Below, in pieces: positions 18,628 through 45,207 of a stretch of DNA of 64,000 bases. The notes under the pieces were generated by a model. It was not told the DNA's origin, made no database searches, and was given only the letters and a program-made list of their open reading frames with translations. This DNA is from a virus, in the IMG/VR virus record IMGVR_UViG_3300045116_000678, positions 18,903 through 82,902 of that record; one strand, 5' to 3'. Position 1 is the stretch's first letter. Every line of letters starts with the position of its first letter. A program made the translations under genes and the position numbers.

Positions 18628-20214
18628 TCAAAGACGCCAATCAGGCGCCATTCCTTCTTCTTCGTCGGCCGTGGCGGTGGCCGAATCGAGCATCCCGAGT
18701 TCCTTGGCCTGAGCCCACTGTCGGAAGGCGTCCGCGCCCTCGCTGCAGAGGTTCCCCTTCTCGGGCTGGTCCACGAACCGGCTCTGCGCGCGATTGAACT
18801 TCTTGCGGTAGCCATCCAGGCGCTGGATGCCCAGGGCGCAGGCCTTGCGGTCCAGGAAGGCGCCCTTCATGTGCTTGCGCGTCTGGTGGATGCCGGTCAT
18901 CAGCTCTGTGATGCGCGGCACGATCTCGAAGCGCTGGCCGGGCATCAGGTCGGCCAGCATTTCTTTCGTGCTGCGGTTGTAGTCGCCCAGGCGCTTGTGG
19001 TCAGCGTCGTGCGGCAGGAAGTGACGGCCGAAGACATAGCCGCGCTTCTGCAGCTCGGTGACGTAGTGCCGCAGGTCCTCGCCGCGGGCTTCGTAGTAGC
19101 CGATGAAGCGATCCTGGCCGCGCAGGTCCTGGTGGAACCACACCGCGCACCCGTCGCTGTTGCCGATGTCCCAGAAGGTGTTCACCGGCAGGTCCAGCAC
19201 CGGCACATCCGTGATGCCGCCGCGCTTGCGCAGCGCGGTCATGTCCTTGGCGTAGTAGTTCCCCTCGGTGCTGATCTGGAAGGCCTCGACCGGCGTCGAC
19301 GGGTACTCCTGCCACATCCGCTCCTCGCGCCCGGAGAAGTCGGCCTCCATCGTGGCGACATACCAAGCGCGCTGGTCGATGTCGATGGTGCAGTCCATCT
19401 CGACCTCGACCCGATCGAAGTAGTCGTGCTGCTCCGTGGTGATCGCCACGGACCGCGAGTCCATGCGGTACTTCGGCTCCTGCCACCAAGCGTAGAAGTG
19501 GAACCGGTAGTCGCGCGGCGTGAGGGGCAGCTTGCCAGCGTGCGCAGCCTCGGCGCGCTGCACCATCTCGAAGAACTCGCCTTCCCTGCCCTCGGCCGTG
19601 CTCTCGATGACCAGGATGCCGTTGAGCGGCACGGCGGGGATGGAGCCGGTGACGACCTCGGCCGCCTTGTCGGGGAACTTGGCGCAGATCTTCCCGAACT
19701 CGCTGACGTGCAGGCGGTGGATCGTGCCCGACCGCATGGACGTGGCGACGCGCACGCTGCTGTTGTTGTGCGCGAAAAGCAGTTCTGTCGCGCTGTCGCG
19801 TGCGAGAGGGAACCGCTCACGGATCTCGACTGGCAGGCTGTCGTAGGCGAACTTGACCTTGTCCCGGAAGATGACTTCGGCAGCCTCGCGGTCCTGGGCG
19901 ATGATCCCGCAGCGCTGGTCGGAATTGAACAGGGCGTGGTCCAGCCAAAGGATCGCGATCAGGGTGGTGAAGCCCAGCTGCCGCGCCTTCAGGATCAGGT
20001 TCCGGTGCCACAGACGACGCACGAACCGCCGCTGAGCGCGGTTGGGCCGGAAGGGCATGACCATGGCGTCGTCGCCGTCGTCGTCGCCCTTCACCATGAT
20101 CTTGTAGAGGCAGCCGCTGAAGACGCGCCACTCCGGGTCCGCCAGGCAGCGCGCCAGCTCCGCGGCGTTGGTCGGCAGCGGAAGGAGCGGCTCGTCGTGC
20201 GTGATGGTGGTCAC
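18628..20214 (-). CDS. terL: Terminase large subunit
   Basis: Walker A LKARQLGFTT, Walker B LHVSE, IESTAEG, nuclease WDIG..D, LPHD, GADAFR. Confidence 0.95.
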   Translation of the reverse strand: MTTITHDEPLLPLPTNAAELARCLADPEWRVFSGCLYKIMVKGDDDGDDAMVMPFRPNRAQRRFVRRLWHRNLILKARQLGFTTLIAILWLDHALFNSDQRCGIIAQDREAAEVIFRDKVKFAYDSLPVEIRERFPLARDSATELLFAHNNSSVRVATSMRSGTIHRLHVSEFGKICAKFPDKAAEVVTGSIPAVPLNGILVIESTAEGREGEFFEMVQRAEAAHAGKLPLTPRDYRFHFYAWWQEPKYRMDSRSVAITTEQHDYFDRVEVEMDCTIDIDQRAWYVATMEADFSGREERMWQEYPSTPVEAFQISTEGNYYAKDMTALRKRGGITDVPVLDLPVNTFWDIGNSDGCAVWFHQDLRGQDRFIGYYEARGEDLRHYVTELQKRGYVFGRHFLPHDADHKRLGDYNRSTKEMLADLMPGQRFEIVPRITELMTGIHQTRKHMKGAFLDRKACALGIQRLDGYRKKFNRAQSRFVDQPEKGNLCSEGADAFRQWAQAKELGMLDSATATADEEEGMAPDWRL

Positions 20215-21149
20215 GGCGGATCCTTGCGACCCGTGTCGTGTTCGGGATCCTGGGCGACCGGCTTGAAGCCGTTCGATGTGCCGCCGGCGATTGCGTGCAG
20301 CAGGCTGGCCAGCGGGTCGACGCGCTGCTGGTTGTCCTTCTCGTACAGCCCGAGGTGCTTCGCCAGCTTCTCGATGGCGTCCAGCTTGGAGTGCATCTTG
20401 ACCTCAATGCCCTCCTTGGTCTGCTTGACGCCGGCGTACAGAGCCAGCGCGGCCGGAGACAGGCGGCGGGTGTCGCACACGAAGGTCTGCCCGAAGCCCT
20501 TGCCGAAGCAATGCGGGCATCCGGGGTGCGGAGCGCGATGCGGGTTGAAGCCGATGCCGCCTTTCGGGTCGAATTCCTCAGGCCCCTTGTTCTCCTTCAT
20601 CAGGCGCATCTGGTCGGCAGCGAACTCTTCTGCGGTGCGCTGGTAGCCGAAGCCCTCGCCGTGGCAGTGCCGGCAACAGCCCACCACGTATTCCACCAGC
20701 TCGCGAGCGTCAGCCGTGGCGATCAGCGCCAGCTCTCGGACCACGCGGTCCGCAGTGATGTGCGTGCGCTCCTGCTGCTGCTGCCGGGCCTCAGCGATGG
20801 CAGCCTGGATGTACGGTTTTGACAGGTTCTCCGACGCCATCTGGCGGGCCGACTCTGTGCTGTATCCGGCCCGCTCGGCCGCCTTGGTGGCATTCAGGTC
20901 CACCAGGTACTCGTCCACAAACCGCTGCTGTTTGGGCGTGAGGGCCACAGGCGCCGTTGGCTGCGTGCTATCGATTTCGGAGCGCTTCGCGACCTTCTTC
21001 GCTGCTGGCTTCGCCTTCGCCTCGACCACCGCTGCCGGATTCGGCTTCTTGCGCGCGAGCACGACCGCTGCCTTCTTGGGGGCGGCGGTGGGCTTGGTGG
21101 TCTTCTTGGGAGGAGGCGCCGGCTTCTTGGCCGGCTTGCGGGTTGCCAT
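20211..21149 (-). CDS. terS: Terminase small subunit with Lys/Ala-rich N-terminus and Zn-ribbon insert
   Basis: LTPKQQRFVDEYLVDLNATKAAERAGYS; CCRHCHG...CPHCFG; KLAKHLG. Confidence 0.9.
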   Translation of the reverse strand: MATRKPAKKPAPPPKKTTKPTAAPKKAAVVLARKKPNPAAVVEAKAKPAAKKVAKRSEIDSTQPTAPVALTPKQQRFVDEYLVDLNATKAAERAGYSTESARQMASENLSKPYIQAAIAEARQQQQERTHITADRVVRELALIATADARELVEYVVGCCRHCHGEGFGYQRTAEEFAADQMRLMKENKGPEEFDPKGGIGFNPHRAPHPGCPHCFGKGFGQTFVCDTRRLSPAALALYAGVKQTKEGIEVKMHSKLDAIEKLAKHLGLYEKDNQQRVDPLASLLHAIAGGTSNGFKPVAQDPEHDTGRKDPP

Positions 21150-21157
21150 GGCGCGCG

Positions 21158-21198
21158 AGTGTTCCTGCACCTTCACCCACGGTCGAACCCTATAGGGG
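21158..21198 (-). promoter_or_regulatory. Late promoter copy 5
   Basis: CCCCTATAGGG-N24-AACACT, 8 nt before terS ATG. Confidence 0.7.
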
Positions 21199-21226: not shown

Positions 21227-21814
21227 ATGAAAGTGCTGCAGTCGTTTCTCATGGCGGTCGCCGTTGCTTCGTACGTCCCTGCCTATGCAGCCGAAGACGC
21301 TGAAGCCCTGAAAGCGCTGGTCGACCGGCAGAACAGCATCTGCAGAGGTGGCGCCGGCGGCGACCAGACCAAGATGGAGGCAGCCTGCGATGAGCGCGGC
21401 CGCAACATGGCGCGGCTCGAGCGCATGGGGTGGTGCTGGGGCCCGGCTGACCAGCCCGGCTACCTGCAGAAGTGGATACGCTGCCCCGGGCAAGCGGGTG
21501 CTCAAGCGCGGCAGCAGGGCGAGAGCCAGTCCTCCGACGACGCGCGGCTCGTCAGCTGCGCGAAGCAAGCGACGCTGCTACAAGACATCGCGAGGTGGCG
21601 AGATGCTGGCGTGCCGGCTGATAGCGGCCGCGCGTTCCAGCGTGCGATGGCCAGGGCCGCCTATTTGGAACTGCCCAAGGCATTCACGGACAGGCTGGGC
21701 GGGCTGTACGGTGACATCCACCACGGCCGCATGCTCGGGATGACCCCGAACGAGATTCTGGCGGATTGGACCGTGAAGTGCCGCAGCGCGGCTTCACTGC
21801 GGAAGCCTGCATAG
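21227..21814 (+). CDS. Secreted Cys-containing moron protein
   Basis: Signal peptide MKVLQSFLMAVAVASYVPAYA; CRGG..ACDER..GWCWG. Confidence 0.7.
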   Translation: MKVLQSFLMAVAVASYVPAYAAEDAEALKALVDRQNSICRGGAGGDQTKMEAACDERGRNMARLERMGWCWGPADQPGYLQKWIRCPGQAGAQARQQGESQSSDDARLVSCAKQATLLQDIARWRDAGVPADSGRAFQRAMARAAYLELPKAFTDRLGGLYGDIHHGRMLGMTPNEILADWTVKCRSAASLRKPA

Positions 21815-21833: not shown

Positions 21834-21866
21834 AAAGAAAGCCCGCCAGGCGCAGGCCCGGCGGGC
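21834..21866 (-). terminator. Intrinsic terminator
   Basis: GCCCGCCGGGC-CTGC-GCCTGGCGGGC-TTTCTTT. Confidence 0.7.
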
Positions 21867-22082
21867 GAATCACGCGAGACAGGATCGCGCGAGGAGACAT
21901 CTGGCCGGCGCAGGCGCCGGGGTACGGCCAATCCGACTACGTGCGCAGTGCACGCTTGGCCGTGCGGTTCTCATCCCGCCCTGCATCCCCCGGGATGAGC
22001 GAGGGGTAATGATGGAGTGGCTTGCCCCCCACTCCCGCGCCAGGGCTGGCACTCAACTCGGGGACCGTCGTTGCCGACCGAG
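21834..22082 (-). ncRNA. Putative ~250-nt multi-hairpin late ncRNA
   Basis: Bounded by late promoter copy 6 and terminator; consecutive hairpins; no convincing ORF. Confidence 0.55.
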
Positions 22083-22430
22083 CCCTGATAGTCGCCGCGC
22101 TGGGTGTTGAGCCGAACCCCTACAGGGGGCCGACAAGGTGGCTGGGGATGTCCGGCCGAAGCGCGCAGCCACGATGGCGCGGCCCACGGCCATGCGCATG
22201 GTCTGGCCCTCGATCCACGGCCCGGCTGGGATGCTGGCGCCAGGCCGGCCGACGACCACTGCGCACCAGATCCAGTCTTTCCCGGGCATGGGTGCCGCCT
22301 GGATGGCTAGGCGTTCCATCACCATGTCGATGTCGGGCCAGCGGGTGAGGTACTGGGTGCCGGCCGGCGCGTCCAAGGCCTGGGCGATCAGGGCTTCGAG
22401 GGTCTTGCTGGGGAGCTCGGAGACTTGCAC
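22053..22430 (-). CDS. NinX/DUF2591-like protein
   Basis: GGGAGAGA RBS; G.T...AVGRAIVAARFG motif. Confidence 0.55.
   Translation of the reverse strand: MQVSELPSKTLEALIAQALDAPAGTQYLTRWPDIDMVMERLAIQAAPMPGKDWIWCAVVVGRPGASIPAGPWIEGQTMRMAVGRAIVAARFGRTSPATLSAPCRGSAQHPARRLSGLGRQRRSPS
22088..22128 (-). promoter_or_regulatory. Late promoter copy 6
   Basis: CCCCTGTAGGG-N24-GACTAT. Confidence 0.7.
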
Positions 22431-22453
22431 CTGCCGATTCTCTCCCGCGTGCC

Positions 22454-22531
22454 TGGTGCCGCCACCACGGATTCGAACCTGGGGCCCTTCCCTTACAGGG
22501 GGAACGCTCTACCGGACTGAGCTATGACGGC
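22454..22531 (-). tRNA. tRNA-Thr(TGT), variant
   Basis: GCCGTCA/TGGCGGC acceptor, GCTC/GAGC D-stem, TTCCC-CCTGTAA-GGGAA anticodon arm, TTCGAAT T-loop, ACCA. Confidence 0.8.
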
Positions 22532-22538
22532 TGTGGAG

Positions 22539-22653
22539 TGATGGTGGCCGGTGCTGATCCCCGGCGCGGCTTCTGCAGGTCGGAGCGAATCACGCCTTGC
22601 GATCCATGCCGCCCCTCTCCGCATCGGGGCGCCCAGCATGCGCGTTCACCATC
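22539..22653 (-). ncRNA. tRNA-like RNA with complementary D- and T-like loops
   Basis: GATGGTG/CACCATC stem; GCGC-ATGCTGG-GCGC; GCCGG-GGATCAGCA-CCGGC. Confidence 0.55.
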
Positions 22654-22927
22654 GTGTCGAGGCACTGTGCGCTCCCCCAGGAACCCCCGGCGGCAATGCC
22701 TCGGCATGATGGCGCCCCGTCTTCCCGGGGCGCCAGCGCTGTTTTGCATCACGCCCGGGCAACTGGCCCAGTCTCAACGCTCTGCATGGGCCTCACCCCA
22801 ACCGGGGCATTTGCCGCGCCTTCCCTCGCAATGGGTGCCGGTTGCCGCCCGGCGCCGTCGCAGGTGTCCACGTTGGGGTCTGCGGCAGCGGCTTACCCCT
22901 TGCGAGGGCGCTCTCTCTACGGTTGTC

Positions 22928-23004
22928 TGGTTGCGGGAACCGGACTTGAACCGGCGGCCTCCGGGGTATGAGCCCGGCGCTCTAACCAACTGAGCTAGCC
23001 CGCG
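22928..23004 (-). tRNA. tRNA-Met(CAT), initiator-like
   Basis: 77 nt; C1:A72 mismatch; GGG/CCC anticodon stem; CAT; TTCAAGT; ACCA. Confidence 0.88.
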
Positions 23005-23527
23005 GCGCGAAGTCTCCAGCGTTGGCGGCCGCCTTCACAGCCCTACAGGGGGTGCCGAACAGCTGCCCCTGCTCCGGGTCGACCTTCTCGGCAAGGGCCT
23101 GCACCTGGCGGCGCAGTCGGAGGATCTCCTGCGCTTGCTCCGCGGCGATGGTGGCCATGTTGCGGCCCGTCTCGATCGCGGCAGCCTGCGCGGCGGCGCC
23201 GGCCTGCAGGTTGGCCAGCATGCGGTCCTCCCGCGGCGTCAGGTTCAGCACCTCGTCGCCGATTTCGAGCTTCACCATGCCATCCGGCATGACGGTCTTG
23301 CTCATCGGCCGCGCCGGCGGGTGCCGCGGTGCCGGCACGTAGACGCCGCGCTGCACCCGCAGGATGGCTCCATCGTCGGCCAGGGTGCCGAGGCGGTCAT
23401 CGATCACCGTGAGCTTGAGTCCAGTGAGCCCGGCGAGCGTCTCCCGGGTCACGATCTGTTCCTGGGCGTGCAGATCCTGCACGGCCTCCATAACCAGGGC
23501 GGTGGTCGATTTGCGGGTGTCAGCCAT
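22982..23527 (-). CDS. Winged-helix DNA-binding protein; candidate late activator
   Basis: GAGGAG RBS; VTRETLAGLTGLKLTVIDDRLGTLADDGAILRVQRGVY; last gene of early operon. Confidence 0.65.
   Translation of the reverse strand: MADTRKSTTALVMEAVQDLHAQEQIVTRETLAGLTGLKLTVIDDRLGTLADDGAILRVQRGVYVPAPRHPPARPMSKTVMPDGMVKLEIGDEVLNLTPREDRMLANLQAGAAAQAAAIETGRNMATIAAEQAQEILRLRRQVQALAEKVDPEQGQLFGTPCRAVKAAANAGDFAPRASSVG
23011..23051 (-). promoter_or_regulatory. Late promoter copy 7
   Basis: CCCCTGTAGGG-N24-GAGACT, 6 nt before tRNA-Met nucleotide 1. Confidence 0.72.
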
Positions 23528-45015: not shown

Positions 45016-45159
45016 CCTGCGCTGCCAAATATCCAGTGGTTTCGCACCCGGAATTGCACAAAAAATGTGCAGAAATGGGCCTCCGATCTGCTTCCAGTAT
45101 TTGGCAGTGACCGGCCCGATCTCCAGCATCCATGCGGGCTGCGGGCCCGAAACAACCGG

Positions 45160-45207
45160 GGACTGTTAATCCGTAGGTCCCTGGTTCGAGCCCAGGTCGG
45201 GGAGCCA
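45160..45207 (+). repeat. att site: 3' half of tRNA-Asn(GTT)
   Basis: GGACTGTTAATCCGTAGGTCCCTGGTTCGAGCCCAGGTCGGGGAGCCA with no 5' half upstream. Confidence 0.85.

Follow-up and report, generated by a model that had tools for sequence, protein, structure and literature searches.

A conserved cassette of transfer RNA genes and an RF02278-like small RNA at the early/late junction of F116-like temperate phages

Layout and conservation of the cassette

The DNA analysed here (the window) is a stretch of 64,000 nucleotides (nt) from the IMG/VR provirus record IMGVR_UViG_3300045116_000678, positions 18,903 to 82,902, the record being 82.9 kb long. Its G+C content is 65%, and a P22-type (F116-like) prophage spans about 1-45 kb of it, with the late genes on the minus strand. 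At the junction between the early and late genes of this prophage lies a cassette of transfer RNA (tRNA) genes and a long non-coding small RNA (sRNA), all of whose features are on the minus strand. The order of parts is the gene for a phrog_8117 protein, a promoter-like box, an initiator-type tRNA-Met, a spacer, a variant tRNA-Thr, a small open reading frame (ORF), a second box and an RNA of about 247 nt that ends in an intrinsic terminator; the small terminase gene, terS, lies beyond and has a box of its own. The 3′ end of the sRNA resembles a family of regulatory sRNAs of Betaproteobacteria, RF02278.

The order phrog_8117 gene, box, tRNA-Met, (tRNA-Thr), (ORF), box, sRNA, box, terS is kept in at least 15 related contigs, referred to below where necessary by their labels (L004 and so on). 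One of the syntenic contigs is the chromosome of Variovorax paradoxus NBRC 15149, which carries a related prophage with a phrog_8117 protein that is 81% identical, followed by the ORF, a box, a short form of the sRNA, a box and terS. This prophage was the sole true match from a scan of genome contigs with a 15-nt seed pattern, the remainder being almost all chance matches. The first-pass annotation of this DNA had proposed an RNA-rich cassette at the early/late junction and had named synteny in related prophages as a check on it; the recurrence of the same order of parts, including in a named V. paradoxus prophage, bears out the proposal. From its list of parts, both boxes, tRNA-Met, tRNA-Thr, the ORF, the ~247-nt RNA and the terminator stand, but a structured spacer and a tRNA-like RNA do not, as neither is conserved.

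Judged by the large terminase (TerL), Pseudomonas phage F116 and related phages come closest among named phages, at 75% identity, followed by Bcep22-like Burkholderia phages at about 60%. F116 (Hollowayvirus) shares the backbone, a P22-type portal, the same box and a phrog_8117 homologue (p37) before terS, its gene order being NinB, HNH, DUF1064, p37, box, terS. It differs in the junction itself, where the gap between p37 and terS is 125 bp and there are no tRNAs, no NinX-like ORF and no sRNA. Since F116 has the same backbone without cargo between p37 and terS, the region from 21.2 to 23.05 kb of the window is cargo at the early/late junction.

Promoter-like boxes

The 12-mer box CCCCCTGTAGGG and its close variants occur seven times in the window, every copy in the minus-strand sense. 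Across the window and the related contigs there are 48 distinct copies, all pointing toward downstream genes, and a hexamer of the form nAnnnT is found exactly 24 nt after the box in 44 of them (examples are GAACAT, CAAAGT, AACACT and AAGACT); the four copies without it mostly look like chance matches in unrelated contigs. F116 has five copies in the forward sense and none in the reverse across its late region, one just after p37 before terS and four at other late sites. There is no -35 element. The centre of the palindromic box is at about -42 relative to a start placed about 7 nt past the hexamer, an arrangement typical of class II activator sites, which stand in for a -35 element. We infer late activation of the cassette solely from this promoter architecture.

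Two of the seven boxes lead directly into RNA genes, as the first-pass annotation had claimed. Copy 7 (23011-23052, minus strand) consists of CCCCCTGTAGGG at 23052-23041, the 24-nt spacer and the -10-like hexamer GAGACT at 23016-23011, and occupies the same position in relatives, upstream of tRNA-Met. Copy 6 (22088-22129, minus strand) has its box at 22129-22118, the 24-nt spacer and the hexamer GACTAT at 22093-22088, with a predicted start at about 22081, at the 5′ end of the sRNA.

A box and hexamer also precede terS in every relative. The terS ATG lies 7-8 nt after the hexamer in all of them (L004-L009, L024, L064, L117, L248 and L251), within the conserved sequence AACACT-cgcgcgc-ATGGCA. 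The GTG at 21176 from which terS is listed is probably not the true start, the ATG at 21149 being the one that agrees with the relatives. Because this spacing leaves no room for a Shine-Dalgarno (SD) sequence, the terS message is predicted to be leaderless. The GTG of another ORF, 9238-8021, is likewise placed after a -10-like hexamer.

The long small RNA

The long non-coding RNA, delimited by the start predicted for box copy 6 and by the intrinsic terminator, runs from about 22081 to 21834 on the minus strand. Its 5′ domain (21904-22081) is modelled as six helices, P1-P6, with a candidate H-type pseudoknot (21999-21993 with 21976-21970). Its 3′ module (21834-21903) is made up of a seed, CAGAUGUCUCCUCG (21903-21890), hairpin 1 (21889-21873) and a terminator hairpin (21866-21841) with its U-tract, which was identified by a terminator scan and is followed by UUUCUUU.

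Searches with nhmmer and pattern scans gave about a dozen distinct long forms and, in other relatives, a short form limited to the final 70-85 nt. Box and seed are 220-229 nt apart in the long forms and 58-59 nt apart in the short forms. The long RNA of the window has 78-82% nucleotide identity to most of its long-form relatives and 72% to L007 and L009, the figure for the adjoining ORF being about 66%, and L005 keeps the long RNA though the ORF is absent. A coding reading of the sRNA was considered and rejected: insertions and deletions of 1-2 nt leave the ORFs frame-shifted or absent, with none shared, which excludes a conserved peptide.

In a nine-helix model of 12 sequences, 94.8% of cells are paired, compared to 35-42% with the partners slid, though the model was drawn from the same sequences and this figure therefore favours it. 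Better evidence comes from the pairs that have changed on both sides, of which there are 12, compared to 0-3 when slid, in an alignment that is shallow and whose members share history; none of 500 shuffles reached the observed values. The fold of the single sequence is unremarkable (z = -1.3), and the support for the RNA therefore comes from conservation and covariation. The hairpin RNA of about 250 nt in the first-pass annotation is thus real in so far as it is conserved, covarying and terminated, but it is not a hairpin array of the decoy type. The 5′ domain has no match in Rfam. BLAST searches with the long sRNA gave nothing in 151 genomes of the Variovorax family and only chance matches of 21-24 nt in 50,697 named phage records, and scanning metagenomes for the P2 hairpin yielded nothing beyond near-duplicates; the long form is rare.

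The 3′ module and the RF02278 family

The sequence CAGnUGUCUCCUCG, between P6 and the last two hairpins, is unpaired and is constant in all long and short forms bar three variant copies. Of the 18 phage copies, 17 have the seed UGUCUCCUC unaltered, the exception being L013 with UGUCUCCAC; this seed is identical to the consensus of the Rfam family RF02278 and to the RF02278 gene of Variovorax. Both 3′ hairpins show compensatory changes, and the second is an intrinsic terminator, as in RF02278. The last 66 nt of the RNA match RF02278 over the whole model, with 32.9 bits and E = 4.5e-5 in a local search of a 311-nt stretch, a score that lies below the gathering score of the family; L007 gives 32.2 bits.

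The comparison can also be made in the other direction. A true RF02278 gene (62.9 bits) is present on the V. paradoxus NBRC 15149 chromosome; its RNA starts with UGUCUCCUCC and has the same UGUCUCCUC 5′ end. A covariance model built from the 18 phage copies only (R1) finds this host gene end to end, over all 71 positions, with 28.9 bits and E = 1.2e-5, and finds a second, weaker V. paradoxus copy at E = 0.0016; a search of F116 with R1 gave nothing. From the whole-model match, the shared seed and the reciprocal match of R1, we regard the phage module as a diverged relative of RF02278 that has kept its seed.

The second V. paradoxus copy (37.7 bits; L271, 1497-1564) lies, by eye, directly after the stop codon of a phasin-like gene, and could be a host sRNA derived from a 3′ untranslated region. 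Its CAGUUGUCUCCU context is shared with the phage sRNA.

The RF02278 family comprises the Burkholderia cenocepacia double-hairpin RNAs ncS03, ncS05, ncS27 and ncS62 (bdhR), which have unpaired CU-rich regions complementary to ribosome-binding sites (PMC4603805, PMC5688073); overexpression of ncS27 slows growth (PMC5688073). In Bordetella pertussis, the 190-nt RNA S17 is cut by RNase E to a 67-nt Hfq-dependent repressor with the seed at its 5′ end, and differs from the RF02278 member bdhR1 by two mismatches in the seed region (bioRxiv 10.1101/2024.11.19.624354). The RF02278/bdhR/S17 family is described as conserved across Betaproteobacteria, and it controls genes for transport and metabolism. 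The phage module shares with RF02278 the unpaired 5′ seed, hairpin 1, a GAUUC/GUUC linker and the terminator hairpin, and the pairing of a long form with a module of about 66 nt resembles that of S17L (190 nt) and S17S (67 nt). It differs in being borne by a phage, behind a late-type phage promoter or a phage tRNA, in its lower score, in a loop 1 whose CU site is not conserved, and in the conserved 5′ domain of about 180 nt, which matches no family. The module does not always follow the long 5′ domain, and in L013 and L260 it directly abuts tRNA-Met. We found no report in the literature of a phage copy of the RF02278/bdhR/S17 family.

The two tRNA genes

The tRNA-Met(CAU) gene (22928-23004, minus strand) was found by ARAGORN and scores 59 bits with the Rfam tRNA model. 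Bacterial initiator tRNAs are marked by the CAU anticodon, by a 1x72 mismatch, G2:C71, C3:G70 and A73, which are determinants of formylation, by the three pairs G29-31:C39-41, by A11:U24 and by the anticodon loop CUCAUAA. In the ARAGORN fold, the phage tRNA has a C1xA72 mismatch, G2:C71, C3:G70, A73 and G29-31:C39-41 (CCGGG/CCCGG). It departs from the canonical initiator in having C11:G24 rather than A11:U24, and the loop CUCAUAC, with C38, rather than CUCAUAA; for this reason we call it initiator-type rather than an initiator. The 1x72 mismatch is present in all eight phage tRNA-Met copies examined, and both initiator marks are kept in seven of them, the exception being L006, where the mismatch is A1xA72 and the stem is AGG:CCU. 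The copies differ from one another at positions 32, 33 and 38 of the loop. The GAGACT hexamer of box copy 7 ends 6 nt before the tRNA (mostly 5-7 nt in relatives, 10 nt in L013), which would put the transcription start at the mature 5′ end of tRNA-Met or adjacent to it.

The tRNA-Thr(UGU) gene (22454-22531, minus strand; Rfam 53.5 bits) has the anticodon loop CCUGUAA. A threonine tRNA is expected to have a cloverleaf fold, G1:C72, C2:G71, G35 and U36, and U33 is near-universal; G1:C72 and C2:G71 are present here, but position 33 is C, as is position 32. The anticodon arm CCCCCUGUAAGGG differs from the promoter box by a single change, and has no hexamer downstream. The same arm is found in four other lineages; it occurs in L004, L117/L042/L097 and L024, and L262 also has a tRNA-Thr(UGU). 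The codon ACA makes up 7% of the threonine codons of the phage and 4.7% in the flank, which is a small sample, and there is no clear signal. The rarity of ACA in the phage means that codon supply gives little reason for carrying this tRNA.

It is worth recording that the segment of the tRNA-Thr arm at 22491-22503 (CCCCCTGTAAGGG) is identical to the F116 box.

Genes and spacer of the cassette

The phrog_8117 protein gene (22982-23527, minus strand; PHROG 8117, E = 2.6e-52) encodes 181 amino acids and stands at the position of lambda Q, as the last early gene. Residues 1-151 are the part conserved with relatives. The frame then stays open to 22982, crossing box copy 7, where it encodes T-P-C-R, and ending 23 nt inside the tRNA-Met gene. 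This read-through of the box is kept in relatives, whereas F116 p37 stops just before its box. The protein gives a weak match to the winged helix-turn-helix of AbiEi_4 (E = 1.2e-3), beyond which sequence searches of Pfam, NCBIfam and the PDB gave nothing; domain searches did not find an antiterminator-Q domain. By its position only, it is a candidate for the activator of the boxes.

The small ORF (phrog_4389; 22053-22430, minus strand) encodes 125 amino acids in the window. Relatives have 95-103 amino acids with a stop just before box 6, and the window copy is longer by about 27 codons, which run across box 6. It had been called NinX-like, and the likeness is a distant one: seven of eight phrog_4389 homologues touch the NinX family PF10765, the best at E = 3e-4, but the window copy has no Pfam match at E <= 10, and comparison to P22 NinX gave neither a pairwise nor a profile match (hhalign probability 0.8%).

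The spacer between the tRNAs (22532-22927, minus strand; 396 nt) is a mosaic. One block of 120 nt is common to L004 (77%), 35 nt are common to L007 and L009, and another group of phages has an unrelated block of 128 nt. The description of this spacer as a discrete structured RNA does not hold, as its homology is patchy despite a fold z of -3.06. Nor does that of a tRNA-like RNA at 22653-22539, which folds as a rod (z = -2.3), with no ARAGORN call and no Rfam tRNA match at E <= 1, and which was rejected. Its place is taken in L004 by a genuine tRNA-Gly(UCC), and the segment may be debris of tRNA turnover. Past its tRNA-Met, at 831-1000, L004 has by eye a second T-arm and a 3′ acceptor end with CCA, that is, the 3′ half of a tRNA, which suggests that tRNA genes are gained, lost and broken in the spacer.

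On the plus strand, 22710-22745 forms a terminator-like hairpin with a T-run, within the sole spacer block common to L004. It might stop antisense transcription from a convergent ORF (21227-21814, plus strand; 195 amino acids) that lies between the sRNA terminator and the terS promoter. This ORF has no Pfam or NCBIfam match and no counterpart in the relatives searched; its N-terminus looks by eye like a signal peptide. As the cargo between the sRNA terminator and terS differs in each relative, this site is an insertion hot spot.

The surrounding prophage

The backbone genes that flank the cassette are all on the minus strand. Upstream are NinB (26795-26223), an SNF2 helicase (25981-24062) and a YbcO/HNH nuclease (24065-23520); downstream are terS (listed as 21176-20211), TerL (20214-18628) and the P22-type portal (18640-16301). 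At the far end, ARAGORN calls a 79-nt tRNA-Asn(GTT) at 45129-45207, which is below the Rfam tRNA gathering score and may represent part of a tRNA at the site where the prophage is attached.

Discussion

Taken as a whole, the explanation that we hold, with a little more confidence than doubt, is that F116-like temperate phages of high-GC proteobacteria, Variovorax being one named host, carry this region as a conserved cargo cassette. We lean towards a function as a late-transcribed translation module, in which the sRNA would be a seed mimic of the host sRNA that pairs with ribosome-binding sites. The anatomy, the synteny, the covariation and the reciprocal likeness to RF02278 are the observations on which the following sequence of events is built; its timing, the processing of the RNA, the use of Hfq and the targets are proposed.

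Host RNA polymerase would probably transcribe the cassette from activator-dependent late promoters. The first unit, from box 7, would give a transcript running from the 5′ end of tRNA-Met, or from within a few bases of it, through the variable spacer and tRNA-Thr(UGU) to the NinX-like ORF; the second, from box 6, would give the ~247-nt non-coding RNA, ending at its strong intrinsic terminator. By analogy with S17L and S17S, the long RNA may be cut just 5′ of UGUCUCCUC, in the context CAG|WUG. RNase E prefers RN|WUU, which this context fits. Where the module directly follows tRNA-Met (L013 and L260), processing of the tRNA would make the equivalent cut. Either cut would free a seed-first, double-hairpin sRNA of about 66 nt, presumably acting with Hfq, whose seed would pair with SD regions and repress the host bdhR/S17-type regulon of transport and metabolism late in infection. 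The tRNAs would supply capacity for initiation and for decoding ACR codons, and may resist defences directed at tRNAs.

Several observations weigh against this proposal. By Rfam's own threshold the phage module is not a member of RF02278, its 32.9 bits lying below the gathering threshold of 50; the RF02278 model, run at E <= 1, does not recover the relatives that have the ACGUUCGCCC linker; and the second CU-rich site of the family, in loop 1, is not conserved in the phage copies, whose hairpin 1 loops read UCCUGUC in the window and CUCG, UAUCUU and similar in relatives. A search for targets in the window, by seed complement and duplex energy, gave nothing distinctive, the phrog_8117 ribosome-binding site pairing with the seed over 8 bp as any strong SD would. 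A mere precursor of the module does not explain a conserved, covarying 5′ domain of about 180 nt. For the candidate activator, distant phrog_8117 homologues occur without a box downstream, and an AlphaFold2 model (mean predicted local distance difference test score 75.7) has no fold match in a Foldseek search of the PDB.

The first-pass annotation had read the cassette as a counter-defence module, in which the tRNAs are nuclease-resistant replacements and the spacer, the tRNA-like element and the 250-nt RNA are decoys for anticodon nucleases or other defence proteins. Both tRNAs do have non-canonical loops (C38 in tRNA-Met, C32/C33 in tRNA-Thr), and the tRNA-Met loop varies at 32, 33 and 38 while the initiator hallmarks stay in all copies but that of L006. 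Such changes are the published signature of phage tRNAs proposed to escape anticodon nucleases (PMC10264068; PMC11555353), an idea that the loops would fit without proving it; moreover, VapC-type toxins are reported to cleave initiator tRNA (PMC10264068), and the rarity of ACA weakens the alternative of codon supply. According to the same paper, phages in general do not carry a tRNA-fMet when the nuclease targets the anticodon itself, as in the Shigella VapC-LT2 case (PMC10264068); in the phage group studied here, by contrast, an initiator-type tRNA is nearly always present. The decoys are not supported, since the spacer and the tRNA-like element are unconserved, and the 250-nt RNA resembles a class of regulatory sRNAs that pair with ribosome-binding sites, and not a tRNA. 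In this analysis neither an anticodon nuclease nor any other defence gene was linked to these phages or their hosts, and we consider this explanation unlikely. To call the cassette an undescribed system was also too strong, as it combines known kinds of parts in a new, phage-borne arrangement, with an sRNA seed identical to that of RF02278: the sRNA represents a known class in a new variant that is extended and phage-borne, and the tRNA genes are of a familiar kind, unusual in their details.

The position of the ~247-nt RNA, just upstream of terS and downstream of a gene at the Q position, with a strong terminator at its end, recalls lambda 6S, the short terminated transcript from pR′ to tR′ between the late regulator and the late genes. 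Such a leader would have no function in trans, read-through of it feeding the late operon, and in L004 the terminator is indeed only 8 nt from the terS box. Against this, every relative has a separate box and hexamer for terS, which therefore does not need read-through, and variable cargo, including the convergent ORF in the window, separates the terminator from terS. The RNA is better conserved than the neighbouring genes, with compensatory changes and an invariant unpaired seed, so that unlike 6S it appears selected for structure and seed, and its 3′ module also follows tRNAs in unrelated contexts. The phrog_8117 protein has no antiterminator-Q signature, and in place of a late unit under Q antitermination we find no Q-family domain, seven box promoters and a terS with one of its own. 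A simple leader is thus very unlikely. A related comparison is with the tRNA genes found downstream of the late regulator in lambdoid phages, such as ileZ-argN-argO after Q and pR′ in the Shiga toxin (Stx) phage 933W. These too are tRNA cargo at the early/late junction, transcribed with the late genes; here, by contrast, the first tRNA is initiator-type with a predicted start at its 5′ end, the tRNAs are coupled to an sRNA, and several activator-type promoters are predicted rather than Q antitermination.

We find it highly improbable that the cassette is a gathering of unrelated morons at a permissive site, its likeness to RF02278 being convergence of a CU-rich 5′ end and a GC-rich terminator. 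The junction clearly is an insertion hot spot of variable content, and the RF02278 score is below threshold; but many diverged contigs share one and the same order of tRNA-Met, sRNA and boxes, tRNA-Met and the sRNA are linked in other arrangements as well, and the reciprocal match of R1 covers the host gene from end to end at E = 1.2e-5. A different and quite doubtful possibility is that the parts form one device for late reprogramming of translation, in which terS and at least one other late message are leaderless, the phage initiator tRNA, itself made without a leader from the first late promoter, raises the level of formylmethionyl-tRNA (fMet-tRNA) and so selectively promotes leaderless initiation, and the sRNA masks the SD sites of competing host messages; the look-alike of the box in tRNA-Thr may then place that tRNA under the same regulator. 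As reviewed in PMC9031893, leaderless initiation gains strongly over the canonical route when extra fMet-tRNA is present.

Returning to the module with a host-like seed, few phage-encoded trans-acting sRNAs are understood, and a phage sRNA that carries a host seed behind a predicted late promoter offers a direct test of whether a virus borrows the regulon of a host sRNA. Two culturable systems are at hand, F116 for the promoter boxes, and the V. paradoxus NBRC 15149 prophage for the boxes together with the short sRNA. The conserved 5′ domain, which may contain a pseudoknot, is a new RNA structure for which Rfam has no counterpart. Finally, the nearly constant association of the sRNA with a tRNA-Met at a predicted transcription start, beside an apparently leaderless terminase message, leads to a hypothesis for why phages carry initiator tRNAs.

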